Shown here: one piece after another, positions 195 to 57,806 of the stretch | How the letters are laid out: each line of letters begins with the position of its first letter | How positions within the stretch are numbered: the first letter of the stretch is position 1 | NCBI GenBank assembly: GCA_918797485.1 | Contig: CAKKNE010000001.1 | Span: 1,426,001 to 1,490,000, forward strand | Reading direction: 5' to 3' | DNA length: 64,000 nt | DNA from: Pelagomonas calceolata | Lineage: Eukaryota | Notes under the pieces: model-generated | The model's database searches: none | What the model was told of the DNA's origin: nothing | The model's input: only the letters and a program-made list of their open reading frames with translations | Made by a program: the position numbers and the translations under genes

Positions 195-1200
195 CTACTT
201 GCGGCCCGGGATGTACTTGGCGTTGCCCGCGCCGTCGCGAACGGTGGCGCTGCCCGGGCCCTGGTGGACGGTCTCGCCGCCTTTGTTCGTGGTCGACTGC
301 GACGCCGGGCCGGCGGACGTGTTAATCTGGAACTGGGAGGAGGGCTCTTCTTTGTCGGCCGCGTTCGCGGCCTCGACGGTCGTGGCCGTCGTCGAGTGCT
401 TGACGGCCTCTCCGGTGGACTCGCCCTCGCCCGAGTACTCGTTTTCCGTCGAGAGCGTCGTGCCCGAGGCGCAGCCGATGCCGACGCCCTCGCCGCCGGT
501 GCAGTCCGTGTTGGCTTGAGCCGCGACTTGAGCGTCGGGGAAGTAGTTGACGACGCCGGGCGTCGTGGCCGGCGCCGGGAGCGTCGTCGCGTTGCCGACC
601 TCGATCGTGGGGTCCGGCTCGCACTCCCACACCTGCGTGCACTTGCCTTGCGCCTCGCACCAGCCCCAGCCGCACGCCGAGCCGCCGCCGCAGCAGTCGT
701 GGTCGTCGTCGCCGGGGCCGCCGACGATCGGCGGGGTGTCGACCGGGACGCGCTCGCCGTTCTCCATGGTCGCGATCACCACCTCGAGGCCCTCGGCATC
801 GGGCTCAACTTGAGTAGGGGTGCCGCCTATGATGGTCCAGTAGGAGTCGAGCTGCGTCCCGCGGAGCCGCGGCGACCTGTGTGGAAATCAAAATTTTACG
901 GCGCGTTCGCCATCGACGCGACGCCTGCTCGATGGCGTGGCGATGCCGGTTCTTCGCCGCTCGACCGAGCCAGGTCGGCCGCGTCATCGCCGAGAAATGA
1001 CTTAGTGAAGAATTGTCGGGTGCACCCGACACACTGGTTGATTTCCACACAGGCGGCGACGGGCCCGGCCCGGCGACGGCGAAGAGCGCGCCGCCGGCGC
1101 AAAGGGCCAACGCGAGCACGATGCCGCGGGCGCGGCCATGCGTGACCGCGGCGGCGGGCGCCTCGGCCTCCACGGCGCCGTATTTCGACTGCTGAGACAT
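195..1200 (-). CDS. Hypothetical membrane-anchored or secreted Cys/Thr-rich protein, 2 exons (1061-1200, 195-876)
   Basis: Removing intron 877-1060 joins MSQQ...AGPG in frame to PSPRLRGTQLDSYW...VIATMENGE (ORF 195..782). N-terminal hydrophobic segment and a CGWGWCEAQGKCTQVWEC motif. Confidence 0.75.
877..1052. mobile_element. Introner (non-autonomous TIR element forming intron 877-1060 on the minus strand)
   Basis: Perfect 15-bp TIR ctgtgtggaaatcaa / ttgatttccacacag. Perfect 8-bp TSD gcggcgac at 869-876 and 1053-1060. Confidence 0.95.
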
Positions 1201-1389
1201 CTTGTGCTGATGTATCTAGTGAAAATCGAGCTTCACGCGCCTGCGTTTCGTCACAGCGGTCAAGTGCGCTGCGGAAAGTGAAGTCTGAGGGTCGCGACGA
1301 TCTCTTGTGGCGCTGGTGTCTCGACGTGGCTATTTTGCCCAGACGGGTACTTAATTTTCCCAGCACAAAACCCGCGACACATAGATCAC

Positions 1390-2674
1390 TTACACCCGCA
1401 CATACACCAGCAGTGCCGGAAGCTTCGGCTTCGCCGTGGCCAGCTCCCCGAGCAACCACTCGACGTCGCCGCTCCCGCGGTCGACAAAACGGTCGCGGAG
1501 CGTCCAGCGCGGCGGGTAGCGCAGGTCCACACTGGACGGAGGCGGCCGCGCGTAGGCCGTGTAGTGGTCGCCCTTGAAGCAGACGACGGCGACGCATTGA
1601 TACATGCCTTCCGAGCCGCCGCCGAAGGCCACCGCGGCGTCGAAGGGGAGCAGGGCGCCTCTGACGAGTTGCGCGATCGATGACGACGAGGGCGTCTCCA
1701 TCCAGGTCAGGTTCACGACTAACACCGGTGCCACGGTCTCCATCTCGCCGCCGACGGCGCACGCCCTCTCCCCGCAAGCGGTACCTGTGCGCAAATCAAC
1801 CAGTGCGTCGGGTGCGATGACGCGGCCGTGCTGGCTCCATGGAACAGTGAGGAACCGACAGCCGCCACGCCGTCGAGCAGGCGTCGCGTCGATAGCGTGG
1901 AGGTCATGATAAGCGCCATGAAATTTGATTTGTGCACAGAGCGGTACAAGAGACGGGTTCACTCGCCCGCGCCTCCCGGAACAAATCCGCAAACGTCTGT
2001 GGGGTCGACGCCGACTCCAGCAAATGTAGGATCGAAGCGGCGATCACGGGAAAGGCCCGCACGTCTCGCTTCTCATTCATCGCGCCCGCTCTAGAAGAAT
2101 CGCCGCACAAGAGACAAGGCTGCCGCACGAGCTGATACCCCACAGACGTGCAAGGACGGCTCCATTTTTCCAGATCAGACTCCAGCGCATCTAACAACAG
2201 CTCGAGCACTTCAGCGGCGTCCGCGTATGCGAAGGCCGCGGAGATGGCGCCGCCCCGCGTCGACAACGCCTGGCGCAGGGCCTCGTTTTGGGATGATGGT
2301 ATTTCGTTCTTTGATACTCCTTTCAGTACTTCTCGTAGAGCATCGGCGACGGGGCTCGAGCCCGTCGCTCGCTCGAACGCCTCCCGGAAGGCGCGCGCGG
2401 CGTACAGAGCCACACCCAAAGCCTCCAAGGAACAGTTGTTCTGCGCCGAGACGTCGGCGCCGCGCCTTGCGCTTGAAGCGTAGTCGGCGGCCTTGAAGGT
2501 CGTCGGTTGTTGTACGGCTTTCGGTTTTGTGGCTTGCTTCTCGGGCGGGCGCTCCTGGGTCAGCTTCGTCGCGAAGGACTTCTTCTTCTTCTTGCCGAAG
2601 AGGGATGGTTTCTTTTTGGGCTGCTCGGCTGGCTCGAGCGACGCCGCCGCGAGCTTGTCCTCGAGGCCCGACAT
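1390..2674 (-). CDS. Ubiquitin-specific protease (peptidase C19)-like, 2 exons
   Basis: Cys-box-like QNNCSLEAL and His-box-like FKGDHYTAYAR. Removing intron 1785-1947 gives VSCTACGERAC (CxxC). The ATG at 2674 is my chosen start. Confidence 0.7.
1785..1939. mobile_element. Introner (intron 1785-1947), opposite orientation to the copy at 877
   Basis: TIR ctgtgcgcaaatcaa / ttgatttgtgcacag (14/15). Perfect TSD agcggtac at 1777-1784 and 1940-1947. Confidence 0.95.
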
Positions 2675-2921
2675 TGGTCTTCGTTTCGGTGCGAGGATAC
2701 GTTGCGGAGTTCGGGCGCGCCGCGTCTCTCGCGGCGGCTCGCGCGATGGATGCGGCGACGGCGTAGGAGTGCTTGCTCTCACGCTCGCTGCAGCGTGCTC
2801 AGCGACGCTCAGCGATGCTCACCAGTTTGCGTGCGCTGCGATATCGATCACAACGATCCCTTGAGCACACTGGATCTCACTGGTAGCCTCTTGGCGTGTG
2901 TTTTGTGTGCTGCATCGAGTT

Positions 2922-2944
2922 GCTAGCGGTCTGTAAGACACTAG
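2922..2944. promoter_or_regulatory. Conserved intergenic CTAG-N-CTAG motif
   Basis: gctagcggtctgtaagacactag; near-identical copies at 10616, 38954, 41116, 46153, 58129. Confidence 0.55.
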
Positions 2945-3042
2945 CCTACGAGACGCGTCGCTGCGACGGCGTTGGCGTGGTATAGAAGTCACCGGCAACG
3001 GGAACTCCACGGGACTAATGGACGTTAGGAACCTAGACGCGT

Positions 3043-3606
3043 TCATGGCGGCGGCGGCGGCTCCACGGCCCCCACCTGACCCGGAGCAGAGGGCGGCACC
3101 TCAGGTACTGGCGACGCCGGCGGCGTCGGCTTCTCCGAAGCCTTGGTAGATACAAAGACCTTGCGCATGTCGTAGGCGTCCTCGCCGTCCGCGTAGTAGC
3201 CTCTCTCCACATCCCTAATCTCATAATCCAGCGTCTGGGAATATAAATGGAACGCCGCTCGGTTCGACTTCCGCACATGCAAGGCCACGTGGTGCGCGTC
3301 GAACGATTCCGTCATCCGGTTGTGGCTGGCGGTCATGAGCTTCGTCGCCAGGCCGCACTTCCGGTGGGTGCGTAGTACGGACAGAGACGTAATGTGGCCG
3401 TGGGGGGGCGTGTCTTCCTCCTCCATCTTGGCCAAAACGTATCCTACGACCTTGCCCTTATGGTCCTCCGCCACTTGGAGGAGTTGGGGCCAACTTAGTA
3501 CATGATAGAAGTAGTACTTGAGGTTGTAGTTCTCCGGTAAGCACCACAAATTTGTTTGTTGCATATTCAATAAGTCAAAAACGGTGGCTTCCCTTACGGA
3601 GAGCAT
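3043..3606 (-). CDS. NAA10: N-alpha-acetyltransferase 10 (NatA catalytic subunit, ARD1)
   Basis: [60 protein letters not shown]. Confidence 0.96.
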
Positions 3607-4217
3607 CTTGTCGGTCGCTTTCCGATCGCTTCGGCGTTACGAAGCTTGATCTATCGATTGCGCTTCAGGCTGCGGCAAGGCGTCGGCGGCGACGCCTCCG
3701 GGCCTCTCCGGCCGTCCGCGGCGCTCGCGCGCGGCTAAAATCCGTCAGCGAGGCGCCCAGCCTTTAGCAAGCTTGGCGCTGCCACAGCGATGGGCGTAGC
3801 CTCACCACCGCTAGCAAGCGGGTCGGCGCTGACCCTGCGCAAGCTCACACGTGGCCTATGCTACCAGCTAGTGCACACGCCACCGCGCCAGACGAGTATT
3901 TTGTGGAAATCTAGCACGTCTATGAACTAGCTAACTCTCGGACGCGACGTATACGCACGGCGGCGCGAACGAGCGCATCGAGGCGCAATTCTCGTCAACA
4001 GATTTGGCCACAGCGACAAATCGCTCGGTGTGCCAGCTGAGCTCTACAGCGTGGCCAGCAAGGCCTGGTGCATCATCGCTGCACAAACGCACGACGCACG
4101 CGACGCCTTCATTCGCGAGCGCACGGTTCGCAGTGGTCGTCTAACGACCAGCAAGACCAGCACGCAGCCTTGCAAAAGCCAACTCACAGCCGTCTCAGCC
4201 GGTAGCACTCGGTAACC

Positions 4218-5234
4218 ATGGTCCCCGCCCTCACGCAACCAACAAGATCTTATATAGACGGCACGCCGACGCAGCGGCGACTAGGGTTTGTCGCCGCATC
4301 CATCTTCAGCGCTACTTATGTGATCGCGCCCGTCTACTTACTTATCACGGGCGTCACGCTCGTCCGAGCGAAAAGGCCGCTGTCCAGAGACGTGTGGCTC
4401 CTCACCCTACCTCTGATAGCCTCGGCCCTCATCCCGGCCAAGATCCTGCCCAAGTTCGGCCGCTGGCTCCTCCAGACGAAATTCATGGCCTGCGTGCCGT
4501 ACTATTTTGAATACGAAGAATATCACGAGATCACGGACCAAGAAGTCCTGAAGCTCCACGAGGAGGGCAAGCGCGTGATTGGGTGCATGCACCCGCACGG
4601 CGTGTTTCCCTTTGTAAGCGTGTGTGCGGTCACGTCGACGCTCCAAGCTAAAGATGGCTTCGGGGACGGCATCCTCGACCTCCCGACGGCCGTCGCCAAC
4701 GTGATCCGGACGATGCCCATCCTGAAGGACGTGGTGGGGGTCTTCGGCTGCATCGACGCCTCCGGCTCGTACTTGAAGTCGCGACTCCAGCGGAGGAAGG
4801 GCTCCGTGGTCCTCTACGTCGGCGGCATGGTCGAGCTCTTCTACGCGTCTCCTAAAAAAGAGACGGTCTTCCTCAAGCAGCGCAAGGGCTTCGTCAAGCT
4901 CGCGTTACGCACTGGAGCCGACCTCGTACCCGTGTACTTATTTGGCAACACCACTTCACTAGAGGCTTTAAAATGGCCCATCCTCGCCAAAATCTCGCGG
5001 AAGACGGGCGTGTCCTTCACGCTGTTCTGGGGGCGGTGGTTTTTACCATTGCCAAAAAAAGTGAAGCTGACCTACGCGCGCGGCCGGCCTTTAGGGTTAC
5101 CTCATATTGAGAACCCCACCGATGCCGATGTCGAAAAGTACCACGCGTTGTACGTCCAAAAGCTCGTGGAGCTCTTCGACCGGTACAAGAAGTTCAATCC
5201 CGACTACGCGGATAAACAGCTGGCGGTGGAGTGA
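4218..5234 (+). CDS. DGAT2: Diacylglycerol O-acyltransferase 2 / MGAT family
   Basis: YF, HPHG, VGGMVE, RKGFVKLA and VPVYLFG motifs of the DAGAT family. Confidence 0.9.
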   Translation: MVPALTQPTRSYIDGTPTQRRLGFVAASIFSATYVIAPVYLLITGVTLVRAKRPLSRDVWLLTLPLIASALIPAKILPKFGRWLLQTKFMACVPYYFEYEEYHEITDQEVLKLHEEGKRVIGCMHPHGVFPFVSVCAVTSTLQAKDGFGDGILDLPTAVANVIRTMPILKDVVGVFGCIDASGSYLKSRLQRRKGSVVLYVGGMVELFYASPKKETVFLKQRKGFVKLALRTGADLVPVYLFGNTTSLEALKWPILAKISRKTGVSFTLFWGRWFLPLPKKVKLTYARGRPLGLPHIENPTDADVEKYHALYVQKLVELFDRYKKFNPDYADKQLAVE

Positions 5235-5361
5235 TAATAAGTATTAATTCATTTAGGAGCCTTGCTCTCCCTCTGTGGGGGACTTGTCGCGTCGATGGCG
5301 TATGGGTGGCTTATCTGAAAGGGTGAGCCTGTACTATCGGGACGGGTTTCCCAGGTAAATT

Positions 5362-5721
5362 TTGCTAATGCAGCGGCCCTTAGCAGCCAGCAACTACGCG
5401 GCGTCCCTCAAGGACCTATCGCGCTTCGAAGAAGTCAAGTCGGTGCTGCGCAAAACGATGCCCGTGGCGCGGCGCGTCCTCGGAGACGGTCATGACATCA
5501 CGCTCAGGATGAGGGGGTGTTACGGGGAGACGCTCTACACGGACAACGGCGCCACGCTCGACGATCTCCGCGAGGCAGTGACGACGCTCGAGGAGATAGA
5601 ACGGATCGCGCGGCGCGTGCTCGGCGGCGCGCATCCGCTCACAGTGGATATTGAGGGCGATTTGCAAGGCGCGCGAGCCGTGCTCCGCGCCCGCGAACGA
5701 CTGGCTAGCCCGAGTGCGTAA
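5362..5721 (+). pseudogene. C-terminal fragment of a TPR-like repeat protein (ARRVLGxxHxxT repeats)
   Basis: Two ARRVLG..H..T helical repeats. No convincing N-terminus; preceded by an introner-core fragment at ~5286-5301. Confidence 0.55.
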
Positions 5722-5789
5722 GGGAGTATCCCACCACCACGCCACCGCCGCGAAACAATTAAACGAACCCACCAATTTACGCCACCCCT

Positions 5790-6557: not shown

Positions 6558-7338
6558 GGTCGCGACCTGCGTTGCGGGATTGGTGAGTGCTCGCCCTCGC
6601 GGCGGCGTGCTCTCGTGCCTCGCGTCGGCGCGTCGGCCTCGGCGCTTTCGTGTCTCTTCGCGAGCCGCGGCGACGGCGTGCGGCAGCACCGCTCGCTCTG
6701 GCTGCGGCGGCGCTCGCCGGCGGCGCTTCGCACAGCTGCGAGCTCCCGCGGCGGCGGCGTGCTCGCCGGCGCACCGGTGCTGCAGAGGGCGAACTTTTTC
6801 GCTATGCGTCGCGGCGCACCGCTTGCTTCGCTTGCCTCGCTTAGGTGCTGCTTGCACGCAGGCGAGCTCTAGCGAGCGGCCGCGGCGTCGCAAGTTCACA
6901 GCCTCTCTGCTGCTCGTGACGTCTCAGCCGTCCGTCAGTCCTATTTCAACGCTGTAGTGTGCCGTCGCTCAAGCAAATTAGCCGTGCCGTCTCCAGTCCA
7001 GCCGGCGATCGAGGCTGATTACAGCCCTATGAATCGCGCCCGTGGAGACGTTTCCCGCCGCAGAGGAGCGCTGTAAGACCACTCGGCGCACCCTTGGAGC
7101 AATCCCCAAAATTCGTGCGGGTTGCTTCAATGAACACACTACTTTTCCCCTCCGTCAGCCCTTCGCGGTTGTGAACCACGCGTTGGACGACGCAACGCTG
7201 GGCACATGAGTCTGTTTTGTTGGTAGTTATACGGGAAGAGGGGAGGGCGGGAGGGTCGGGGGGCGCCCGGGGACTCCCATCCCGCTGCACGGCGCGCGGC
7301 GCGCGGGATAATAGCAGGGTCTGCAAAGACAATAAATA

Positions 7339-9222: not shown

Positions 9223-9270
9223 TCATGTGGTGAGAGTCAGACTGATGGTCTCAGTCAGATCGTATTCGGG

Positions 9271-9291
9271 GCTAGCGGCCAGGGACACTAG
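9271..9291. promoter_or_regulatory. CTAG-N-CTAG motif (variant)
   Basis: gctagcggccagggacactag, ~50 bp upstream of the 9222 ATG. Confidence 0.45.
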
Positions 9292-10828: not shown

Positions 10829-13800
10829 TCAGGTCAAGGCCGGCGGCGGCGGCGCCGGGAAGGGGACCTTCGCAACAGCAGCGCGCTTCCGCGGCGAGGG
10901 CGACGCGTCACCGTTCGACAGCGACCGCTTTTTCCTAGTAGGAGACGAAGGCAGCGGCGACGGCGGCGTCGACGACTTGGGCGACGGCGGGTTCGCCCGC
11001 GCCGCCGCGAGCAGCTTCCGCGCCCACGCCGGTTCTGTGGAAGCGGGCTCGATCTTCGCTCTTTGATCAGGAGGCAGCGCGAGGAAGGCCTCGAAGCGCT
11101 CGAGCCGCTTCGACCGGTCGTCCGTGACCACCGGTTTCTTTGAGGCCGGCCGCATCCACGCCTCCAGCGCCCTTTCCAATTCGGAAGCGGTCCTACCGCC
11201 TCTTGGTCCGTCGAAGCTCGGATCAGAAACAACGGCCTCGAAGTCCTCGCCGCCGTGCTTGTGCAGCGCCGGCAGGATCCAGCCGTCTCCCTTGACTTCG
11301 CAATACTCCAGCGGCCGCAATAACCGCTGTTGATGTTGTTTAGGATCTCCACTACCGTACATGGACTTGCGCAGGAACAATTTTGATGAGAAGGCCCGTT
11401 GCAGATCCTGGGACGGTTCCTTGGTACATTTCTTGGACCAGCCGTTCACCGTTCTCTCAACAGCTTCGGCCTCGGCCTCCCCGAAGGCACTTCTGATTAG
11501 TTTACCTGACGACGGATCTACGCATTGGTCCGGCCGCAGCTTCCGCCTAAAAAACCTCCTACCATTATCGGTCTCCTCCTCCTCTAATGAAGCAAGAAAA
11601 TCTTCAGCACGATCGCCCAGGAAGCCGCGGCACTTCTTCGCGCCACAAAAACATTTGGTGGACGTCTTCGACGAGGCTCTTTTCTCGTACTTGTCCTGGT
11701 CGCCCTTCCAGCTGTAGTCGAACGTGACCTCCTCGTCCGCGGCGATGGGTCGTTGCGCGACGATGGCGATGCGCTTCTCCCCATCCACCTGTGTGGAAAT
11801 CAAATTTACGGCGCGTTTGTCCTGAATCGCCGCGTCGACCGCCACGCCATCGACGCGACACTGCTCGATGGCGTGGCTGTGCCGGTTCTTCACCGCTCGA
11901 CCGAGCCAGCACGGCCGCGTCATCGCCGAGAAATGACTTCGTGAAGAATTATCGGGTGCACCCGACACACTGGTTGATTCCCACACAGCCAAAAACGGTC
12001 CAGGACTGGCATTCCGCGTTCGGCTCGCACGAGTGGTTTAAGAAGCGAGTCAGGCCGCCTCGACGACTCGCGTCGACGACCTCCTCCTTGTCCAGCGCCA
12101 TGAAGTACCAGTGCTTCTCCTTCCGTTCCCGCCGCAGTTGCGCGTAGTTCCGCGCGCGCATGACCTCGCCCACGTACTCTCCAATAAGCGCGCCGGCCTT
12201 GAAATTTCTGCACGCGAAGAGCCCGAAGCCCCGCGCGTCGCCACAATCTCTCACGTCGATGCCGCCGCCCTTCCACCGTTGGAGGCGCCGGTTGCCGCAC
12301 TTGGCTCCTAGACTACAAGTTCTCGGCGTGCATTCGATGAATGAAGCTCTTGCGGGACAGGTGCCTGTTGTCAAGCAGCCAATCTGTTTTGATTCTTCTT
12401 CATCACTTTCGGAGTCGTCGCTGTCCTTGGTGCGTTGGTCCTTGCGCCTGCGGGGGGCGGCGCGTCGACGGCGTCATCGCGGCACTGTCGAGGACGCCGC
12501 ACCAATACCGCCGCTCCGCGGCCAGCGCCTCGACCTTCTGAGAACACCCGCAGCTCCCGAACTCGTCCCTACATAATTTGAAGCGCTGCTTCGCCGCCTC
12601 CGCGAGCTCCTCGGGCCGCTCCGATCGGTGGATGAGCTCGAACTCATTCAGCGCCACCTCCAAGCTTCTTTTACCTTCTCTCCTACCTTTTTCGCCCTCG
12701 CGCTCGATGGCCGCCTCCACAACCAAGGATAGAGGTAACGTAAAGTCCTGGTACATGGTACCAGTATCTCCCGGGAAGAACGCGAAGGGTTGCGCGTCGT
12801 AGGCCTCCCTAGCTTTCTTTCGCGACGTATGCCGCTTGCAGCCGAACTTGGGCAAGGGCAGGCGAAAGGGCCCCTCCGTCTTCTTCTTCACCTTCCGCTT
12901 CGCTCGGCCCGTGTCGCGCCAGGCCGCCTTGTAGGCCGCAGCTCGAGCCAGCGCCGACTGGTCCTCATCATCCGAATCGCTTTCTTCGGGCGCTGGCTGA
13001 CTCCCATTCTCTTTCTGAGGAACCAATCTAGGCGCCGCGTTCGCGTACCTGCCTTCTTCCAATTGGCCCTCGACCCGTTCGTAGGAAGGATCGAAGAACA
13101 GCTCCGACCACGCCGCGCCCTTGCCGTACTTTATGGATATTTCCTGCTTGATTTTGTCCGTGTACTCGTCATCGCTCAGATCTTCGCTCTCGTCGTCTTC
13201 CGAAGAACTACTGGTCTCCTCTTCCGGGGGACCGAGCTCGTAGCGCTCGTCGCCCAAGTCTACCACTTCTTCTTCGTCGTCGTCGTACAGCAGCGTGTGC
13301 TTCTCGCCGTCAAACGACAACACTTCCCCATAATACCAGCACCGATCTTGAGGCCACCAGACGCGGATGCGTTCCCCGACGCACTCGGCGCCGCGCGGGG
13401 GGCCCTTCTGGGCCTTGGGCTTCGGCTTTTTGGGAGCGGGCGCCTCGTCTTTGTCGTTTGTGGAGGCCTCCTCGGCGGCGTCGCTCGCGGCGTCGCTGGC
13501 GTCCTCCTCCTCGTCGTCGCTCGACGGCGGCGAGCGGGCCTTGCGCCGCGGCGGCGAGGGCGCCGGCGGCGCGCGGCCGCCGCGGCTCGCGCGGCGCGGC
13601 GGCAGGCCCATGGCGAGGCGCCGCGCCAGCTCCTCGTCGCCGGCCGTCGCGTCCTCCGGTTTCGAGGCTTTGGCCCGGGCCTTCTTGGCGGGCCGCCGCG
13701 CGGGCGGCTCGTCGTCGCTGTCGGGCTCGTCGAAGATGGCCTCCGTTGTCGTCTTCGGCTTCGGCTTCGCCGGCGGGCCCTCGGCAGGCTCGGCTTTCGC

Positions 13801-16269: not shown

Positions 16270-17263
16270 GGCGACTGGCCGTTCGTTAGAACGGCAAGCG
16301 GCGCTGCCAAAAAGCTGTAAAACCCGGCTCATTTTAGCCGTGCGGCGCGCGGCCCGGACTACGGAGCTCGGAATCGGCATATTTATAGGCCAGGTGCTGC
16401 AGGGCCTGATCGCGTCGTTGGTGGTCCAAGGCGCGCTCCAGAAGCGCGTCAAGTCAGAAAAGGACTTTAATGTTTATCAAAATCAGTTGACCGTGATGAT
16501 GAACATAACCATGCGCGCGGCAGTGTAGACCTCCACGCCATCGCGACGCAATATTTTGATTACCGCGCAGGAACGTCATCTACATCTCGCTGGCCAACAT
16601 CCCCACGTTCTTCGCAGAAAAAGTTGTTTGTGTCTCCGAGCAGGCCGAGGGCTTGTACTCGGGCCTCGCGTATTTACTGGCGTCGACGGTCTCGTCTATC
16701 CCCGTCGCGGCGCTCTCGATCCTCGCCGGCACGCTCATACAGTACCTCATCACGGGTCCCGACCCGGTATACTACCGCTGGTACCTGTTCCCCGAGGTTT
16801 ACTTGAACGCGTTCTTGCTCTACCTCGCGACCGATAGTTTGTTCCAATTCTTTGCAGTCACGCAGAAGTCGTCTGCTGAGGCCCAGAACGTGGCTTTGTT
16901 CTTCTTCGGCTTCATATCTATGTTCAATGGTGTTGCCCCGACGCCTAGCGCGTTCCCTGTCTGGATTCGGTGGGGGATTTGGGTGGTGCGCGGCGCATCA
17001 ATCGTCACCAGCGCTCAGCTCACCGGTCGATGAACGCACAGGTCTCGCCAACGTACTACGCGATGGCCAATCTAGTCATCCGGGGCTTCATCGACGAGGG
17101 CAACGACAACACGGAGAGCATCACGAACGGCGTGGGCTTCCGCAACGACATCAGCTACGGAAGCATCGCGCCGCCGGTCACCTACGTCCTCTTCGCCGCG
17201 TTCATCATCCTCATGAAGGCGGCGACGGTCTACGCGATGCGCGGCCTCAAGCAGGCGAAGTAA
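16270..17263 (+). pseudogene. ABCG (ABC-2 type) transmembrane domain only, with 2 short introns and no nucleotide-binding domain
   Basis: ANIPTFFAEKVVCVSEQAEGLYSGLAYLLA and MFNG...FPVWIRWGIW/VSPTYYA are ABCG TMD motifs. Introns at ~16513-16570 and ~16983-17041. No Walker motifs upstream. Confidence 0.7.
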
Positions 17264-19430: not shown

Positions 19431-20667
19431 TCACCCTAACTTTGTCAGGTCCGGGTTCGAGATCTTGCGCACCATCTTCGAGTCGTTCGCCACGCCGCGC
19501 AGCGTCTCGAGCTTCGGCAGCTGGAAGCCGAAGTCGTCGCCCAGCTGCTTCTGGACGAGGTCGCACCAGAACGTGTGCGTCTCGTGGATGACCTTGTGGG
19601 CGTACTTGGCGCCCATGCACTTCTCGTCTAAGGCGAATTTGTTCGGCGGCTTGCCGTCGGGGATCTTGTAGGTGCGGAACCACTCCCTTATGAGCGAGAC
19701 GGTGCCCGGGATGAGGCGCTCGACGTCGTTAATATCGTTGAGTTCCGGCGCCCAGCGGTCTTCCGCGTCAATGGCCACGACCTTCCAATCCGTCTCATCA
19801 TCATCAATCATTGCCAAGACACCCAATACTTTGACCGGCCGGATCTCGCCCGTCTGGACCTGGCGCAGGCCGATCTCGCCTGCGAGGTGTGCGCCATCGA
19901 CGCGACGATTCCGCCGTTCTCTCTCGCGGCGGCGACGCCGTCGACGCGATGGCGCTTCCATGAGCCGGACGCAGACACGCACAAACATCCAACGGGTCGT
20001 TGTCGCCCGGGTAGCCCGTGTCTGGCGAGACGTGGCGCGGGTCCTCCCACGTCCGCGGGAAGCAGCCGTAGTTGAAGAAGATGTCTCCTTTTTTAAATTC
20101 GCGCAAGACGCCCTTCTTCTCGTCTTGCTTAATCGGCGTCGCGCCTTCCGTCGTCGCCACTTCGAACTTTTTTCTAGTACACTTGGGAATTTCGCATATA
20201 AAGTTAAACCTGTGCGGAAATCATCAAACGTTCGGGTGAGACGCCTCGTGCGAGGACGCCAAGAACTCTCGCGCTGCGTCGAGGCGGCCAGAATAGTAAA
20301 TAATACCTCCAGGCCGGCCTGACGCACTGGTTGATTTCCGCACCGAGTTAAACAGGCCGCCCTCGGCCACGAGGGGCACGTCGTGCCACAGACTTAACTC
20401 CGCAACCGTCATGTCCTCCTCGCCCTTGGCGAGGACGTGGACGCGGTAGTCCTTCGTGCCGGCCTGGCCGCGCTCCATGATCAGGGATTCGATCTTGCGC
20501 GAGCGCGCCTGCTGCTTGAGTTTTTTTTCTAATTGCTTGTCCTTCGGCGCTTGCTTCGGCTCCTGCGTCGTCTTCCACAGCACGTAGGCGCTTGTCGCCG
20601 CGGCGCCCAGGGAGAGGCCTAGCGCCAGGGCGTCGCTACGGGCGCTGCCGGCGGATGCTGGCGCCAT
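19431..20667 (-). CDS. ppa: Soluble inorganic pyrophosphatase (family I), 3 exons
   Basis: SLWHDVPL, FNFICEIPK, NYGCFPRTWED, GDNDPLDVCEIG, MIDDDETDWK, WFRTYKIPDGK. Introns at 20210-20353 and 19880-19982. Confidence 0.95.
20210..20345. mobile_element. Introner (intron 20210-20353)
   Basis: TIR ctgtgcggaaatcat / ttgatttccgcaccg. Perfect TSD agttaaac at 20202-20209 and 20346-20353. Confidence 0.93.
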
Positions 20668-34989: not shown

Positions 34990-36645
34990 CTACGGATGCC
35001 ACATCTTAATCGTCCGGTCCTTCGACCCCGAGGCCACCGCCGCGCCGCACGGCGACGCGTCGACGCAGAAGACCTCGTCCAAATGCCCCGGGAGCGTGCC
35101 GAGGGCCGCGGCGAACTTGCGCGTCTTCGTCGTGACGTTCTTCGCTTCGGACCCGGGCACGCCGTCGTCCGCCGCGCTCCAGACTTTTAAAGTGGAGTCT
35201 TTGGACGCCGAAACAACTAGACGAGAGTCGGGCGCCCAGGCCAAAGCGTAGACGGCGCCGACGTGGCCCGCCAACGTCGCGAGGAAGGCCCCGGTCCGCC
35301 CGTGCCACAACTTGATCTTCTTGTCGAAGGAGGCCGACGCGAACTTCCGCGCGTCCGGACTGAAAAGAATGGAGTTGACGGGCTGCTGGTGGCCCGTCAG
35401 GCGCGCCTTGGGCTTCGTCTTTGCGGCCCCGGCCTTCAGCGAGGTCCAGAAGAGTAATGTAGCGTCGTCCGAGCCGCTCACTAACCTCTCGCACGTCGCA
35501 TGACCGCCGTTCGCATTCACGAAGGCATCGTAGCGTTGTTTGGATGTAGAAACGACGTCGTTGAACGTTGTACCTTTAAAGGGCTTCTGGGCTTCGAAGG
35601 GCCCCGTGCGACACACAAAAGCCGAGGCCAATGCTAGCGCGTTCACGCGGTGGCCGTGGCCCTGGAGAGTATTGGCCAGTTTCCCGTCGCGCCACTTGCC
35701 ATCGGCGGACCGCCAGACTTTTACTGTTCGATCTCTAGAACCGGAGTACAAGGCGCCGTCACCCGACCAGGCCAGACATTCCACGCCGTCGCTGTGGCCG
35801 CTTAGCGACGTGACCATCTGGGCCGTCCGCACCTGTGCGCAAATCAATCAGTGAGTCGGGTGCGGCACGCCATCGAGCCGACGTCGCGTCGATGGCGTGG
35901 AGGCGCGTCGCGACAATTTGATTTATGCACTGGTGCGCGCGTTCCAGATTTTGCAAGTGCAGTCCTTGGACGCCGAGGCCAGCAACTCGCAGGTGGACTG
36001 GGATGCGTCCGCCAGGTGGCAGGGGAGCCACGCGAGTGCCGTGATCCACTTTGAGTGCCTCTTGAGAACGCGGCACTCGCCGTCTGAACGCCACACTCTT
36101 ACCTCGCCGGCTCGATCTCCGGACGCGACCATCCTTGCATCGGGCGACCAGCTCAGACACAGAACGTGGTGCTTGTGTCCACTGTAGGTCTTCTGGGGTA
36201 TGTTAGCTAAAGCATCCCACAACCGTACTGTGGCATCACCGCCGCCAGACGCCACTTTTTTACCGTCCGGCGAGAACTGGACGTGGAGTACGGCATCGCT
36301 ATGCCCTGGCAGCGTCTCGGCGCATCGAGACACGCGTCTCACTCTGAAGACAGCCAAAGGCTCATAAGTCAACGTGAGCGTCTGCTCCGTGCTAAACGAA
36401 TACTGCTCCTGGAACTCTTGTAACGTTCCAGGAACACTGACCTCGCCGGCATAGAAGGCGTAGGGTGTGCTATTCGTGTCGCTCTTCAGTTTTGAGACGA
36501 TGCTCCCGAGCTCGGCCGGGCCGGACGCGAGGGGCACTTCCAACGCGGGGCCGAGCTCGGCGCCTTCTACCGATTTCAGTTGGACGCGCACGGACTCGTC
36601 GAGCTTCGGGCGCTTTGACGTTTGTGCTTCGTCGAGCGATGCCAT
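34990..36645 (-). CDS. NLE1: Notchless homolog / Rsa4 (NLE domain + WD40), 2 exons
   Basis: YEPLAVFRVR, ERLVSGSDD, LTGHQQPVN, ASASFDK, LPGHLDEVF. GC-AG intron 35833-35940. Confidence 0.93.
35833..35932. mobile_element. Introner (GC-AG intron 35833-35940)
   Basis: TIR ctgtgcgcaaatcaa / ttgatttatgcactg (12/15). TSD gtccgcac / gtgcgcgc (6/8). Confidence 0.9.
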
Positions 36646-38975: not shown

Positions 38976-38985
38976 AAATAGTTTT

Positions 38986-39195: not shown

Positions 39196-40521
39196 CTACT
39201 GCCAGGTCTTCTCGCAGTGGTAGTGCGAGGGCCCGTCGAAGAGCGTCGCAAGGAACTCCTCGTACCCGGCCGCCTCGCCGCGCTCGCAGGCCTGGCTGAT
39301 CAACTCGAGCACCGCCGGGTCCTCCAAGTCGAGGCAATAATGCGGCCCCTTTAAGTGGCCCCTGAGAGCTTCGTAGTCGACGGACTGCAGCCGCACGTAC
39401 AGGAAGTTGCACCCGTACCACGTGGCACTACTTTTGCAAGCGCCAGCGGTCTCGCCGAAGAGGTGACTCGCGAGTTTGTACTGGATCTGGTTGCCCCAGC
39501 GCCAGCGGCGCCACGCCAGCATAACAGCATTAAACGGCAGCCAGAGCCCGACTGTGTGGGAATCAACTAGTGAGGCGTCAAGACTCGGGGACGATGAAAT
39601 ATTGATTCTACACCGAAGGTCGCAGTGTAAAATGAAGATCATCAAATACCACGACTGCGCCGGAATGTCCACGAAGCGCCGATAAGCCTTCGTGCATAGA
39701 TCCGACCGGCTAGCCTCGAACACCGTCCCCGACAAGCACGGCACCATCTTATCCCCTTTCCGTGACGCCCCGTACGTGCCGATGGCCAGGACGCACCCCT
39801 TGGTTTGACCCTGCAGGAGGTTGCCCGGGCAGGCCTTGGAGAACAGCTGTTGAACCGGCCGGCGCTTCTGGCGCGCTGTTCCCTCGAGGTGGTTCATAAG
39901 ATCCTCTCTGGATGTTTTGTTCGTCCTAGCACGGCGCACCATCGCGTTAAAGGCCGCGTACCCGCACAACGCGAACAGGCCCAGGGCCTGGACAATCAAA
40001 TTCCGCTTCAGCGAGTCGTCGCTAATGATGAGGTACGTGGTGCACGCCGTCAAAAGCCGCTCGAGGCGCATGGGGTAAGAGACCACTTGACCAGCCTTCG
40101 CCGTGACGGAGCCCATAATCTTGACGGCGAGGTCACACGCTCGCCTCGCATTAGCAGATCTAAAGCGGTCGGAGCACGCGCCGCGCACGATGTGGTGCAT
40201 GGCGTTCGCCGAGAGCACCGCGGCCGAGCGGGAACCGGCGCCTACTTCGCCCACGTTGTGATCGCTCGCGACATAGCGGTTCTTCGCGTACGAGAGCTCC
40301 GGGTCCGTGCAGAGCAGCGATAACAAAGTCTCGACGTCGGGCCAGAGCTCTTGGTACGTCGCGGGGTTGTGCTCGTATCTTTCGAGCTTCCACTCAATGT
40401 TCTGTTGTGTGACGGTGCCTATGTTGGGCCCCGGGAGGTCGCAGATGGCGAAGACGGGGGATGTCGACGCGGCGCTCGCAAGCGCGGCGGCCGAGGCGAG
40501 TGCTACCGCTGTGAGCAGCAT
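39196..40521 (-). CDS. Hypothetical secreted or membrane protein, probable 72-nt intron 39552-39623
   Basis: Signal peptide MLLTAVALASAAALASA, TM segments; the ORF reads through a mini-introner. Confidence 0.6.
   Translation of the reverse strand: MLLTAVALASAAALASAASTSPVFAICDLPGPNIGTVTQQNIEWKLERYEHNPATYQELWPDVETLLSLLCTDPELSYAKNRYVASDHNVGEVGAGSRSAAVLSANAMHHIVRGACSDRFRSANARRACDLAVKIMGSVTAKAGQVVSYPMRLERLLTACTTYLIISDDSLKRNLIVQALGLFALCGYAAFNAMVRRARTNKTSREDLMNHLEGTARQKRRPVQQLFSKACPGNLLQGQTKGCVLAIGTYGASRKGDKMVPCLSGTVFEASRSDLCTKAYRRFVDIPAQSWYLMIFILHCDLRCRINISSSPSLDASLVDSHTVGLWLPFNAVMLAWRRWRWGNQIQYKLASHLFGETAGACKSSATWYGCNFLYVRLQSVDYEALRGHLKGPHYCLDLEDPAVLELISQACERGEAAGYEEFLATLFDGPSHYHCEKTWQ
39552..39615. 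mobile_element. Mini-introner (64 bp)
   Basis: TIR ctgtgtgggaatcaa / ttgattctacaccg. TSD heavily decayed (gagcccga / aaggtcgc, 4/8). GC donor 8 nt outside the element. Confidence 0.8.
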
Positions 40522-47141: not shown

Positions 47142-47202
47142 CTGTGTGGAAATCAACCAGTGAGGTAGGTCACGGGGACAACGTCGCGTCGATGGCGTAG
47201 AC
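47142..47202. mobile_element. One-ended introner remnant
   Basis: ctgtgtggaaatcaaccagtg followed by the core gtcgcgtcgatggcgt; no second TIR or TSD found. Confidence 0.75.
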
Positions 47203-47703
47203 TCTTCACGCCATCGCGCAGACGCAGCTAGAGCGTTTCCGCTGTTTCTCGGCGTCAGCGGGCAGTCAGCCAGGCGTTGCGTTAGGTCTACTCACGACGT
47301 GTAAGGTCGACGCCGGGGGTCGAGCGGGCCGAGCTGAGCCCGCTGAAACGGCCGCGCGCGCGCAACGGGCCTCCTATTGGGGGTAGGTGCACTTTGCTCT
47401 TGTTTCAAGGCTTTTGGCGCCTAGATCGTTTCGTGGCTTGGCGAGTGGGTGGACTACGTTACGAAGCGTCTCTACGCGCGCTCACGCGTTACACGGTCGC
47501 CTCGGGGCCTCGGTTAGACGGCTTCTTCTCTGTCTAGGTGCCGTCAAAATGCCCGAGAGCTCCAGGCGCCGAGGCCAGGGAGATCCCGCGACAAGCCATA
47601 CAGGGCGTCCCAGAGACCTCCGGAACCCCCAGATCAACATCCGACGGCCGTTCGCGTTTTTCACCGGAGGCGCGGGCCGCGCGGCGCGAGACAACACGAG
47701 TGG

Positions 47704-50700: not shown

Positions 50701-53700
50701 CTCCTTGGCGTTGGCCGTCATTTTATATTTAAACTCCGACTGCTCCACTAATTTGATCGCGGCCTGCTTGATGCGCTGCATGCCTGCGTGGGATACGTAT
50801 CAGACGCCATCGACGCGACGTTCAAGTTGAGAAATTGACGCGGAGTCACGGACCCTCGCTCGTCTGCATGTACACCTTGGCCTGCTTGTCCGTCTGCTTC
50901 TTGCACAAGGCGCGCGCAGCATCTTCATCTTTTTGAATTTGCTCTAACTCTTCTTTACGGCCTTGATTCGCGTCCTCGTTCTGCGCGAGGACCTCGGGGG
51001 CCACTTCCATGCGTGCCGTTGGTCGCCCATTGACAAACAACCGCATCATCGTGCCGTCATACGTGCCTACCACATGTTGCCACTCGTTCACACGACTTTT
51101 CGGGCCCTTCAACACGACCTCGGCACTGCCGCAAAAGAGCGTGAAGCACCACTCGTGCGTGTTCATGACGGCTAGGGCGCCGCGGCCCGTCATACATGCT
51201 ATCCTGTAGGAACCCTCGTCCTCAGCTAACAACGCCCATAGTTCGAGGCAGAAGCTTTGTGACGGTTTTTGCGGCGAGATTCTAGAGCAGTATGAAGACA
51301 CTATGTGCCCACATTCGCTGGGTTCGAAGCGACAGCACTTCGGGCCCTCGACCGGGCGTCTTATCACATCTGCTTGTGCATCAGCGGCTTCGAGGAACGG
51401 GACACCGCAATACACTCCTTTGGCAAAATAGCCGTCCAACGAACCGCCCACATCACCTCGGTTCCTAGCTAAGTGGGCTCCCGGCCGCTCGTCCAGAGGT
51501 AAGTAGAGAGGCGGCTTATGTCGCTTGATCAATTTGTTGTAGTCTCCTGTGCATTGTCGAGCCTTGTGTGCCAACAGTAAGCCTCGGGCCACGTCCAAAT
51601 GACAGATGCCATGCTTAATAACTGGCTGGCAGGCCGGCCTCGAACCAGAACAAGCGCCTAAACTACTGACAGATGTGTCCGACTTGTTCAAGTCGGCCGA
51701 GACAAATACAAAACCATCCGGTTGTGCGTCAAACGCTTCCAATGCTTTTGAGTTTATAGGTAAGCCACACAAGGCACTGACCCTTCTGATGAGGTAGGGT
51801 AATGTCGGTAACAACGTCGTCCGGACCGTACACGCCTCGACACTATCGATGGCTCTGTCACCATACGACTGGTTCACTCGAGGCACGATTTCCTCTTGCC
51901 AGATGACATCTGCCGTCGGATGCCCGCCCGTCAAAGCATTGAGCAGATCTATAGCAAAAGGTGACGCAATCGACGGCACGACGCAACCGTGCAAGCGCGC
52001 ACTTCGACGCATGTAGAACCGCAGTAGTAGTTTAGCTGCTCTGCAGACCATCTCGCACAACAACGCGATGCGCATCTCCTTGCTATTACGCGCGTCGCGC
52101 ACCTCGCCCGCGAAGACCACTTCGCTATTCGTACTTAACCCTTCGAAGGGCTCCTCGAGGGGGCACCTGTCTTCGCTGAACTCCTCTGTACTACTAACTC
52201 GAAAAACTCTACCAGCTACGAGTATGCGAGAACCTCGCTCGAGCTCGAGCCGGAAGTCCGACGACGTCCGCAAGACAGAACTCCCGAAGTCGCAGCGCGC
52301 CGTTCCTGTTAATCTACGCCAGAACTTTCTCCTCAGTAAACCCATGTGTCGCAGGTTAGTACCAACTCGATGGAGCTCCGCCGTCACGTCCAGGCCCCAG
52401 AGTCGCGAGGGACCTAGCCTCTGATCAGAATCATTATATCCAGAACCCATCTTTCTGGTGGAGACAGGTATCTCCAATGCAAACGGATCGGCGATGGGGT
52501 CGAAGGCCGGTACATCTCGGGAGCGTGGACCTAGCGGTCCGCGACTAGCTAGATCCTCGGCTAACAACGTGAGTTCATTTTCAACAAGGTGTTTTGTGGC
52601 ATCAATAACCCTAGAAACGTGGAGGTCGCCGTCCTCCGTCGCTGAACTAATAGCACAATCCCCGTCCGGAGATAACGGCTGTTGATACCTTTTGACGTAC
52701 TCCGGTCGTAGCATCCTCCAGAAGATCGAATGGCCCCTGGGAGCCACTGGTAGGTGTTCACTGCCAACGGGATTCTCGCTGGGAAGGCAGTTCCACAAGT
52801 TAACAAGGCCGAACCTATCTTCATCGAGTTTATAGGCTCTAAGGTCAACTGAAGCATGAATCGTCTTGGGATTCAGGTCTTTACTACCCTTGACGTTGTG
52901 TGCCGCGAGATTGAGTTTGCGAGCTATTCCCGCCAACAAGTTGTTGCACTCCCTAGAGTCGTTGTGGACTACCTCACCGCGGTCGTCGGTCCCGTGCACT
53001 AGTTCTCGTCGCTCCCTTCTTACCTCGCCACTATCCCCGTACTTGATTAAATTAGTGGGCAAAACAGCGGTGCAGATGACGCGGAAGCCGTGGTAGTCCA
53101 CGGTCGCACTGAGTGGAACTCGGAGCTTATCTGTTTCTAGAGCTTCTCGCAGATACGCTCTGCAACCGTTCCTCTCATGGCCGGCGGCCTTGGCCGCGTA
53201 CTCGTCCGAACCATTAAATATCCCATGTTCGTCGGTCGCTACTTCGTACCGCACCCCCCAGGCCTCATATTTATAAACTCGTGGGCCCCGGCCGCCCACT
53301 TCCGCCCTACAATCGGCGTCTTTTTCACTCACTACTGGAATTGTCTTCTCGGAGATGGGTAGGTGCCACTCATGTAACACTGTGGTGGCCCCTCGCACGC
53401 ACGCATCTAAAAAACCCTCACATACGGATATCAATTCCGTCAGTCGCAGCTCATCCAACTGGTTGAGGGGCTTCCGATTCGACTTGAGTCTAGAAGGTGC
53501 CGAGACGTCGTCTGCGTGTATTAAAGCAGTAAAGTACCTCTCGGTCCACTGCTCTCTGTCCTCTGGAAGTACTTCAACCCCAGGTTTCCTTCCTTTGATC
53601 AAGTTGTGGCACCGTTTCACGTCTCTTCTCCTTTTCAGCCAGTAGTTCCGCGTGAGTTTTGTTAATCTAATCTTCTTCTGTTCCTTCTCGAGGGCCTCTC

Positions 53701-56700
53701 GCGCGAGTTGTTCCTGCTCGTCGCACTTCTTGAGCGCTAGGTCGCATCTATTTAGTAAATCGTCGACGGTCGGGTCGATGAGTTGCAAGGGCGTCGTGCC
53801 TCGCTTCGCCGAGGCCATCGCCGCGCGCACCTTCCGATCGACGACGGTCCGAGCGTTCTCCGCGCCTTTCTCGGCCCGCTCGACGACTCGGCGCTGCAGC
53901 CACGCATCATGGCGCGCGTGCTGCTCCGTGACGACGGCGGTTAGCAGCCCGAATTCGAAGTCGGAGGCTAGTACCTTTCGCAAAGCTTCGGCCACGACAA
54001 GATCATCTTTCAACAATCTAAAGTGTTCTTTCAGCTCCGTCGTCAAGAATGGAGGGATCGGTCTCGTCGCCAGAACGGTCTCGACGTCCGGTATTTGTAG
54101 CCCCGGGAACGCCGGAGACAATCGAATGAGCGTAGCTTGCTTCCGTCGCGAGTAGCGGTGGCGCGGCGCCCCGAAGTGGCCGCCGAAGACGTGGGATTCC
54201 GCAGAACTTGTTCCTAAACAAGCGCCTTCTCCCTTCAGAGAAGTTTCGATGTACCCCAACAAGAGTCGCTTCGAGGGCAGCTCGAGGAGCATTTCTTCGG
54301 TCTTGAGCACGGAAAAGACGGGATTCACGGATCGTAAACGACGCATGAAGTCGTCCGGATCCGGGATGGGTGAGGCGTACTGCCTCCTCACTGCTCTTTC
54401 CTTGTCCGACTCGCCGGCCCCGTCTCCATGAAGTTCCGGCGGGAAGCAGCCGACGAGCATCTTTTCTATCCTACTTCTTGATCGGGCATTATACGCTTGG
54501 CGATACGCATCAGGATCCTGGCCATACACATCTAGATCGATGTCTACGACCAGCGATTTCTCGTCCCGTCGCGGCGTCTCGATGGGCTCGTCCTCGACCT
54601 CTTGGGTGGAGAAGGGGTTCGTCAGGATCGACGCGAAGGCCGTCATGGACTAGTGTAACGATCTCACGTCCTTCGGGGGTGGCGCCGCGGGGCCGTTCAG
54701 ATTCACACCAGTAGGTGCTAATCCTCTTTCTTGCTCCATCTCGTCGAAGCGGTCGCCGACCTGCTTCGCGACGGCGTCGCAGGCCTCCTCCATCATCAGG
54801 CGGACCGCGGCGTCCCGGTCCATGCTCATCCCCTCGGCTTTTTTACGAGTCTGAAAAATCCGGACCTTCGCGTCCCACGTGTGGCGCTTGACGCCCGTCA
54901 ACAATTCTTTATTGCGGAAGTCCTTCTCGACGCGTTCCTTGGCCGTCTGCGTCGCGACGCGCCGCGCCTGTTGGAACGCCTGGACCCGAGCCACGTGCTC
55001 CGATTTTTCGCGGTTCTTCTTGCCTCGCCAGATGTTCTGGAGCTTCGTCGCGGCGCGCTCGGCAATTTTGGATTCATGTACCGTCATGTTCGTGAGGTGA
55101 CCTGCGTGGCACGGACTCCGTCGCGACACCGCGGCGGCCCTCTGGCGGCCACGTCGACGGCGTCGAGGCATCGCGTGGACGCCAGCGTCTCCACCAGATC
55201 AAGTTCAAGTTCATTTTCGGCGCCGAGTCACTGGCCGTGCTCGAGGGGTATGACTGCGGATCGCTGTTTCTTTTTTACGGTTTTGAGGAAGCGGGAGTAG
55301 TCCGCCTTGCAGGGGTCATCTAAGCCGCGAGCAGTAGCTCTTTCGTGCAGCTGGAGCTTGAACTCGGACCCGAGCTCTTCTCTGACTTTGCTGGACTCGA
55401 ACGCGACCGTGTATTTCACATCGGCCGGCCTTAATAACCCAAGCTCGAAGAGTCTGACAGTAGGCATCTTCTGCCGCTGATAGGCACTCAACTCCCCAAA
55501 GGCGAACTGCACGCCGAACAACTTCGACAGGACGGTACTTGTTGCAACTGCATGGGCCATCCAATCAGTGGCTTCCGCTAAAGTCATCCGGCCAATGCCG
55601 CCGTTCCGTTCCGACTTGATTCTCTGTTCGGCTAGGGCGCGCTGTGTTACACTAAACAATTCTGAGTCGCCCGCGGGCCGTCGGAGGAACCCTAACCCAC
55701 CTAATAACCGAGAAGCGCACTTGAGCGCTGATAACAGTTCCTCAGGCCCTAAGAACCCATCACCGTCCCAGTCGAAGAGCCTCAAAAAGATCTGTAACCT
55801 CGTAATCAATCGATCACTACAGAGCATCAACAACCCTACAGCAACATCGACAGTCGCGCACTCCTTGTAGGGCGGGTCGTCCTGGCTCCTAGGATCCCAG
55901 GCCCTGTTATTGTCCGCCGCACCCAATGAAGCGAAGAGTGTCAGGATGTTGTCCTCCCTCCGACGTCTATGTACTGCTCGTTCCAGTAGCTTCTCGGCGT
56001 CATCGAGCCCCTCAAGAGCTTGTCGTAATGCACCTTCGCACTCGTGGATCCGCGTCTTCATGGCTTGGACGAACTCGGCTGCCGTCTCGGCGCGCTCTTC
56101 CTTGCTCTGTTCGCCGTACTGCGACCCGCCGCCCGGGAGCGGCGGCGCCTCGTTGCCCTCCTCGAGCTGCAGCTCCAGCTGTTCCTGGGCCTCCTCGAGC
56201 TCCGTGCAGGCTCTATCCAGATCCTGCTGCCTCTCTTTGAGGTCCTTGCCTGCGTGGGGACGACGCCGTCGCGACACGACCGCGGCTCCCTCGCGGGACG
56301 TGTGGACTCTCTCACGACCACCTCGACGGCGTCGAGGCGACGCGGCATCGCGTTGACGCCATCGACGCACGCCTAGACACTCTGACGGCCGCGTCACGGC
56401 GTCGAGGCGGTGTGGTCTCACGAAGACGCCATCGACGCGACCCCGGCAAGTTTCTGCGCTGAGCCACGCGAGCCTGCTTCTCGAGGCGTCTCCCACCTGG
56501 AGCGGTAAATTTCTCCGCGCCGTCGATCTGGTCCGCCTCGTTCTGCATGCGCTCGAGCTCCTGCGCTTCGTACGAATCGCGCACGGAGTTGGCTTTGTGG
56601 AGCGTGTCCGCCTCCAGCTCACAAGTGGCGGTAGCCGCTTCTTCATCAGCCTCGTACCGCGCATCGAGCTGCAGCCGCTCCGCCTCCGTGGCGCAGACCT

Positions 56701-57806
56701 TCCGCCTGCCTCTGTATTCATTATCCCGCTTCCGCCGCTCGCGGTCGTGCTTGTTCTCGAGATCAGCGAGTTTCTTATCTCGGAAAAACTTCTTGGACTT
56801 GGAATCTTCCCGAAATTTATCGATGGCCGCCCAGCGCTCCTCGCGCTTGCGCTCGGCCACCTCATCTTCCACTTGTTCTCTCGCTGCTCTAGCTTGGTCT
56901 TCTTTGTCTTGGATGTCTTGGACGGACGTATCTAAGTAGCCGAAGAAGATGGGGGACCGTAATGAGGGATCCCATTCCGCGGGCGGTCGCCGGGGATCTC
57001 TGGGCGGCCTCCCCTCGACGGGTAGGGGGTGGTCCGTCTCGGGGGCCGGTGCTGGGGCGGCCTCATCAAAGATACCTGCGTGGACATCAAATTGTAACCT
57101 GACTCGCTGGTTGATTTCCACACCGGAACGTGCCGCTCGCGACGGAACCAGAATCTTGTGTTAATGGAGACTGCGGTCCCGACGCCGCCGTGAAGTCGTC
57201 GTCGCTGATCGAGGCGGCTGTAGAATGGGCCGTCGAGGTCACACTTGGAGAGGGCGAGGCTCTTCCCGTGGGTTCTGGCGAGGGCGCGGGCGCCGGGGCC
57301 GGCGCCAACGCGAGTGGTCCTAGATCCTCCGACTCAAGGTCCTCGTCGTCCTCGTCGTCCGTGTGGCCCGTGTATTCAAAGGTCTCGGGGTCGCCTCTTT
57401 CTATGCGTTCGAGGAACATCCGATGTCTACTAAGCTTCCGAGGCGCGTCTTCATCGATAGCCATCACGTAGTCCCTCGAGGCGGGGTGCCAGGTCCGTCG
57501 CTTCTTGGCCGCTTCATCTAAATGTCTTTCCTCTTCTATTTCATACGTCACGCGGTAGTAGTCCTCCCAAGACGTCTGGTCACCGAGGACTTCCGCGGCC
57601 TCGCGCTTAGGGTGCGGCACGGCGGCCTCGCCCGGTCTGCTCTCAAACGCGTGCGCGCAGTGGCCGTATTCATCTAGCGCGCGGCGCACGTCCACGAGAG
57701 ACCACCTCTGGAAAAACGCGAACCGCTCCGCGAGTTCCTTCAAACGCTCCGTCTTCGAGCCCTCCTCGACCTGGCGCATGATGAGCGTGGACGAGGCGAC
57801 GCCCAT
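47788..57806 (-). CDS. Giant multidomain protein: EF-hand, IQ, CLU-like, LamG (concanavalin A-like), LRR (FBXL/AMN1 type); ~8 exons
   Basis: FDWDGDGFLGPEEL; LQNIWRG; AGHERNG...VPLSATVDYHGFRV...LVHGTDDRG...MLRPEYV (CLU); WQHVVGTYDG...LFVNG; LTD...C..L LRRs. Frame-restoring introns at 57076-57133, 56250-56496, 55102-55235, 50784-50853, 50472-50625 and 48638-48834, plus an uncertain one at ~54599-54667. Confidence 0.8.
57076..57125. mobile_element. Mini-introner (50 bp; GC-AG intron 57076-57133)
   Basis: TIR ctgcgtggacatcaa / ttgatttccacaccg. Decayed TSD aaagatac / gaacgtgc. Splicing gives VAS/GIFDE. Confidence 0.85.

Follow-up and report, generated by a model that had tools for sequence, protein, structure and literature searches.

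Seven introns in a 64,000-nt stretch of the Pelagomonas calceolata genome (contig CAKKNE010000001.1, positions 1,426,001 to 1,490,000 of the forward strand; hereafter the window) each combine a short inverted-repeat element with one 8-nt flank. These GT/GC-AG introns were very probably left behind by a non-autonomous DNA transposon, or introner, that was moved by a transposase. An earlier, sequence-only reading of the window had proposed that the terminal repeat supplies the AG and an 8-bp target duplication the GT or GC donor, by a mechanism known from pelagophytes. This core proposal is upheld here by RNA reads at three of the sites, by homologues or protein motifs at four, and by 96 complete copies of the family in metagenomes.

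Results

Seven inverted-repeat elements form introns of minus-strand genes

All seven related inverted-repeat elements were located where they had been placed (Table 1). Their 15-bp terminal repeat is strongly enriched in the window, with 15 matches at no more than two mismatches; the number expected was 0.18, and none of 100 shuffled sequences reached 15. These matches include 12 of the 14 element ends, the right ends at 35932 and 39615 being more decayed, and three further single repeat ends lie at 16556, 47142 and 63310. Interior sequence is common to the copies and occurs in both orientations. Relative to a metagenome consensus built from 21 copies of 199–207 bp, the elements at 877 and 11789 are 97% and 93% identical over aligned positions, and the interior of the 20210 element differs from it. 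Related copies are found at many unrelated gene sites, seven plus three in the window and 96 complete ones in metagenomes.

Read on the minus strand, every element has GT (four) or GC (three) exactly 8 nt outside it and CAG at the intron end, and removal of the element plus 8 nt yields GT/GC-AG introns at all seven sites. The donor position that had been proposed was correct throughout, with one amendment: because all seven host genes lie on the minus strand, 877-1060 is the span of the first intron, and the exonic duplication copy lies at 869-876. The hosts share this strand because most expressed genes in both stretches examined with RNA (see below) are minus-strand genes. Plus-strand gene models were rejected, four for want of an AG and the others as unsupported by RNA strand or homologues. 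The three perfect 8-bp duplications seen earlier, at 877, 1785 and 20210, were confirmed, and the remaining flanking 8-mers retain four to six matches. A decayed duplication was not accepted as proof of splicing; it fixes only the position of the cut.

Both element orientations occur, as had been noted, with the AACCAGTG-type end at the acceptor in three window elements and at the donor in four; the element of intron 2, for example, is inverted relative to that of intron 1. The further claim, that each end reads CT...AG and either orientation works, held for three elements and failed for four, whose donor-side ends (at 20345, 35932, 39615 and 57125) start with CGG or CAG. With no AG at that end, these four copies are therefore usable in one orientation only.

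RNA reads and homologues place the splice junctions

RNA reads were compared with window stretches 600-20599 and 37300-57299, which contain six of the seven elements; the four raw RNA runs (X21-X24) represent one sample. Removal of the element plus 8 nt, as predicted, was seen at three sites. Joint 1776>1940 skips 163 nt, with CT..AC at the cut + 8, in eight reads of X21 and two of X22, and is present in contigs of X1 and X5 too. Joint 20201>20346 skips 144 nt, again with CT..AC at the cut + 8 (77 and 54 reads), and joint 39551>39624 skips 72 nt with CT..GC at an unambiguous cut (49, 32, 30 and 24 reads in X21-X24). At 1785, 20210 and 39552 alike, the joint reads are on the strand expected for minus-strand genes. 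Many other joints and loose ends were reads from other copies of the family and were disregarded.

Homologues align without gaps across the junction at 877 (P0002, P0009 and P0024), at 20210, where the host is an inorganic pyrophosphatase gene (Pfam PF00719), and at 35833, in a gene for the WD40/NLE ribosome assembly protein 4. After splicing, the 35833 product matches P0166 (CAH0364476.1, Pelagomonas calceolata) in 515 of 515 residues and is ∼72% identical to Aureococcus orthologues; the full match assigns the window to P. calceolata and shows the 35833 junction to be the one in the public annotation. Splicing at 11789 joins NHSCEPN...WT to VDGEKRI...TFDY, which we take to be the two halves of the SET motif; the Pfam SET match is limited to profile positions 78-104, in the exon downstream of the intron. 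Removal of 58 nt at 57076 puts two exons in one frame, and both align to P0203 (46% identity). The earlier expectation that splicing restores the protein was supported in this way at 877, 11789, 35833 and 57076, with the reservation that the exact cut at 57076 falls within a low-complexity linker. Separately, a cluster of WD40 proteins was found to contain full-length and 275-aa members, which may reflect intron presence and absence; the contig type was unclear and the cluster was not used.

Metagenome copies carry 8-bp duplications with donor dinucleotides

Metagenomes scanned with an 18-base pattern that begins at position 4 of the repeat gave 124 stretches from 3/64 of the collection parts (∼2700 estimated). 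The pattern picks out copies that retain one end in good condition, and the sample therefore leans young. Loci L012-L132 comprise 96 complete elements, no two of which share a site, and 28 unpaired ends. Viral contigs gave 11 exact matches, none with the CTG end, and these were taken as chance.

A perfect 8-bp duplication flanks 43 of the 96 complete copies, and any other length from 4 to 12 is represented at most once. GT or GC stands at a usable end in 43 of these 43 copies (background 0.32; p = 4e-22) and in all 80 copies that keep at least 5/8 of the duplication, the threshold at which 16 were dropped. The metagenome donors are GT in 54 cases and GC in 12. Judged from the donor alone, the 80 copies divide into 36 and 30 between the two orientations, with 14 ambiguous. 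By eye, L036, L075, L077, L100, L114 (second copy) and L043 show a 2-nt repeat slip or a duplication that seems to be offset or 7 or 9 nt long; these six retain a GT/GC donor at the shifted position and were excluded from the statistics. Of 55 metagenome copies, 51 passed an open-frame test; for want of a control in GC-rich DNA, the figure is not used as support.

The elements are 50–203 bp long, and among the 96 complete copies the modal length is 203 bp (14/96) and the median 156.5. Copies of 199–207 bp fall into 14 that share one interior, six with an unrelated one and one with a third. Two unrelated ∼203-bp interiors between the same ends are seen in L023, L032, L040, L119 and L125 on the one hand and in L016, L045, L104 and others on the other. 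The recurrence of ∼203 bp with unrelated interiors suggests a constraint on length; a link between nucleosomes and introner length has reportedly been drawn (Huff 2016 is said to be its source).

Repeat position 2 changes on the donor side only

Across 160 repeat ends, position 1 is C in all and position 3 is G in 158 (the two others belong to TAG acceptors), and position 2 is T in 143, A in eight, C in seven and G in two. Where donor and acceptor sides were assigned, position 2 was other than T in 14 of 66 donor-side ends vs 0 of 66 acceptor-side ends (Fisher p = 6e-5). The lack of any acceptor-side change is the demand of splicing. More surprisingly, C1 and G3 never change on the donor side, where a rough yardstick of 4% per site, itself derived largely from A/T positions of a GC-rich genome, predicts ∼6 changes; some position-2 variants recur within subfamilies. 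Most simply, C1 and G3 would be required by the transposase and T2 would not, and variants would survive only with the intact end at the acceptor. A bolder alternative draws on RNA structure: in a predicted RNA fold, the terminal repeats of 11789-11996 pair with each other (z = -4.8), and selection could act to unpair the AG in this predicted hairpin. The position-2 bias was not found in a literature search, which did not cover Huff 2016 and thereby does not establish that the bias is unpublished.

An orthologous locus with a different insertion

An orthologue 85% identical to the pyrophosphatase gene of intron 4, on a single 1054-bp metagenome contig (L044), encodes the same peptide across the 20210 site and has neither the insert at that position nor the window's 19880-19982 intron. 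At L044:603-782 it carries a different family member, with intact ends, 6 nt from the 20210 site and splitting the 8-mer of that site. Lineage-specific intron gain is what the two aligned loci, L044 and the window, indicate.

Weighing transposition against other origins

Several observations weigh against an origin by transposition. Among the RNA joints listed there is none for 877, 11789 or 57076, and the 35833 element lies outside both RNA-compared stretches. A spliced read is also the read that an element-free allele would give, and RNA alone therefore cannot separate the two; the empty-site comparison gave no same-site empty allele from a close strain. Sixteen of the 96 metagenome copies match at fewer than 5/8 positions in register, several of them being boundary slips by eye. 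The element in L044 has an 8-nt GT leader that matches its target at 1/8 and shows no target duplication. Nor was a mobiliser found. No transposase family was detected by Pfam in 92 window open reading frames of at least 185 aa, in keeping with the earlier statement that the window holds none. The seven single metagenome ends with more than 600 nt of flank belong to short elements whose partner end is damaged or lost, none of them autonomous (the reading frames near these seven ends were left unscanned, and the flank of the other 21 single ends is too short). The P. calceolata annotation table, in its rows to 14,028 of 16,667 genes, lists a single Tc1-like transposase, and none of the hAT and MULE terms searched for occurs there.

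The equivalence of spliced and element-free reads opens one alternative, that the elements are unspliced insertions in the window strain and the joined reads come from element-free alleles of the sample. Mixed bases at 41183-42014 point to some heterogeneity in that sample. However, four of the seven introns would shift the frame if kept unspliced, and a retained 35833-35940 would bring two in-frame stops into the ribosome assembly gene (intron 6, of 72 nt, would be in frame and without a stop). Moreover, the genome's own annotation gives the spliced protein, GT/GC and CAG stand at the exact cut in 7/7 cases, and pieces of the X1 contigs match the window without differences. We consider this alternative extremely improbable.

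Whole introns, leader and element together, might instead have spread by reverse splicing or templated break repair, with the 8-mers incidental. Such a route would accommodate the L044 element, with its intact ends and its GT leader foreign to the target, as well as the common leader with which two window introns start (see below) and the failure to find a transposase in the window reading frames or the examined annotation rows. Yet reverse splicing predicts neither perfect site-specific 8-bp duplications, which 43 of 96 copies have, nor the use of both orientations, and we judge this route very unlikely.

Transposition of a non-autonomous element is thus the reading that we prefer. A staggered 8-bp cut would duplicate the target; where GT or GC opens the target in the direction of the gene, that copy would become the donor and the reverse-complemented CTG end of the element the acceptor, and the exact message would be regained. 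Elsewhere, insertions would disrupt genes and be removed by selection, or the transposase would avoid such sites. Later internal deletions would shorten the copies from ∼203 bp to 50 bp, and the intronic 8-mer would drift; the acceptor end would stay CAG or TAG, and repeat position 2 on the donor side would be free to change.

The family differs from hAT elements at position 2

The earlier hint that the mobiliser is of the hAT type is not supported as written. It drew on the length of the duplication alone, and 8-bp target duplications are made by other superfamilies too and are not exclusive to hAT; moreover, most ends depart from the hAT consensus YARNG. In the consulted parts of the source, hAT elements are described by 8-bp duplications and YARNG ends (PMC3014272). 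As far as that description goes, the window family resembles miniature inverted-repeat transposable elements of the hAT superfamily in its 8-bp duplication, its short terminal repeats and the C/G at positions 1, 3 and 5, and differs from them in having T, not A, at position 2 (143 of 160 ends, with A in eight). We did not file the family as hAT, because the ends of most copies differ from YARNG at this position.

A hAT transposase is nevertheless a possible, if doubtful, mobiliser, and would refine the transposition reading: the family would stem from a hAT element whose CAG end became CTG and so provided an acceptor on the opposite strand. Besides the duplications, eight of the 160 ends start with CA, CAGTG ends fit YARNG, and C1 and G3 are nearly invariant. 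The prevalence of T at position 2 speaks against this origin, as do the examined annotation rows, with no hAT family term and only the one Tc1-like transposase, and a palindromic GT...AC target preference was not supported (7/43, p = 0.16).

An extended version, which we hold to be unlikely, makes a single base of the repeat the switch between transposon and intron. A change from a hAT-like CAGTG to CTGTG would have given the acceptor; the donor-side base would later have changed, so that the A of the hairpin's AG lost its partner, with C1 and G3 kept constant. Successive waves of this end, with unrelated 203-bp interiors, would have made most introns of the region, and some copies (L044) would have moved with a foreign donor leader.

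Further introner-like introns of the window

Three additional members adjoin the single repeat ends (Table 1). Among the RNA joints listed there is none for 47142..47295. Splicing of 16444..16570 would give an open frame of 442 codons, in a region where RNA coverage is almost nil, and splicing of 63310..63412, a site outside the RNA-compared stretches, would restore ...HDMTIG-VEFDSR...WDTAGQE.

Table 1. Introns of the window that contain family elements (1 to 7) and additional predicted members
Feature	Position	Strand	Element	8-mer	Donor	8-mer match	Remarks
Intron 1	877..1060	-	877-1052	1053-1060	GT	8/8	exonic copy 869-876; host gene without Pfam match
Intron 2	1785..1947	-	1785-1939	1940-1947	GT	8/8	exonic copy 1777-1784; RNA joint
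Intron 3	11789..11996	-	11789-11988, near full length		GT	5/8	splits SET domain
Intron 4	20210..20353	-	20210-20345		GT	8/8	donor-side end CGG; RNA joint
Intron 5	35833..35940	-	35833-35932		GC	6/8	donor-side end CAG
Intron 6	39552..39623	-	39552-39615, 64 bp		GC	4/8	donor-side end CGG; RNA joint
Intron 7	57076..57133	-	57076-57125, 50 bp		GC	4/8	donor-side end CGG
Extra member	47142..47295	-	intact end at 47142, partner end lost		GT		predicted intron; acceptor predicted at 47142; nearest GTGAGT donor at 47295
Extra older member	16444..16570	+	acceptor end repeat-like		GC	6/8	predicted 127-nt GC-AG intron; match is of leader with following exon
Extra older member	63310..63412	-	acceptor end a decayed repeat		GT		predicted 103-nt GT-AG intron; Rab-like GTPase gene

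RNA defined nine further introns, all on the minus strand: 6567-6962, 19880-19982, 37778-37886, 40419-40479, 48638-48834, 50472-50625, 50784-50853, 55102-55235 and 56250-56469. Eight of the nine have a repeat-like end (YRCAG, the corresponding position being G), six hold the element core GCCATCG, and the donor is GC in five. These introns may be introners of greater age, with the qualification that the likeness at the acceptor could be the general consensus of a GC-rich genome. The introns at 25830 and 55235 (minus strand) have a common leader, GYCAGTGACTC, with AACTTGAAC downstream, and those at 50625 and 50853 show the same more weakly; this suggests a second subfamily equipped with a donor of its own.

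Region 47791-57848 (minus strand) has matches to EF-hand, CLU, laminin-G-like and LRR domains, contains six introner-like introns and is possibly one very long gene. At 41183-42014, in one plus-strand transcript only, mixed bases occur in proportions of the RNA reads that range from a minority to roughly half, with a 1-nt deletion at 41725; these reflect heterozygosity or a paralogue.

Discussion

Both the mechanism and the presence of introners in P. calceolata are already known. Guerin et al. (2022; PMC9481584) and the preprint of that paper report, in the consulted sections, 956 putative introners in this species, with an intron length peak of ∼210 bp, GT and GC donors, AG acceptors and a terminal inverted repeat (TIR). 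The modal element of 203 bp plus 8 nt gives 211 nt, which fits this peak. Species, donors, acceptor and a conserved TIR likewise agree; the description in those sections is without the repeat sequence, the duplication length, orientation counts or a mobiliser, so that the identity of the two families would follow from shared features rather than from a sequence match. The short copies of the window (50–136 bp) may fall outside the 956. Taken together, the window family and the introners reported earlier for P. calceolata are very likely one and the same, with the mechanism as in Aureococcus, and the end sequence of the family and the 8-bp rule may already be contained in published figures or supplements.

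For Aureococcus anophagefferens, the consulted portion of bioRxiv 10.1101/2020.10.14.339549 describes introners that take one splice site from the element and the other from the duplication, in either orientation, and likens 8-nt classes of Polarella to them. The window family shares the division of splice sites between element and duplication and the use of both orientations; it comes from another genus. Gozashti et al. (2022; PMC9860276), in the part available, list families from Pelagomonas metagenome-assembled genomes and recognize a class with the 3′ splice site in the element and the 5′ site from the target-site duplication (TSD); for the four Pelagomonas families shown there, TSD and TIR are marked '?'. 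Their Aureococcus sp. example has both splice sites in the element and adds 12 nt, and the window family does neither. The mechanism of introners is reviewed, in the excerpt consulted, in PMC11282704.

The present family is a clean case, with RNA support, of introns gained through transposition in an alga that is abundant in the ocean, and its copies form an age series that runs from 203-bp elements with perfect duplications to 50-bp relics. The value lies in the detail, namely the end sequence, the 8-bp rule and the one-sided change at repeat position 2, and with the end sequence in hand the missing transposase becomes searchable.

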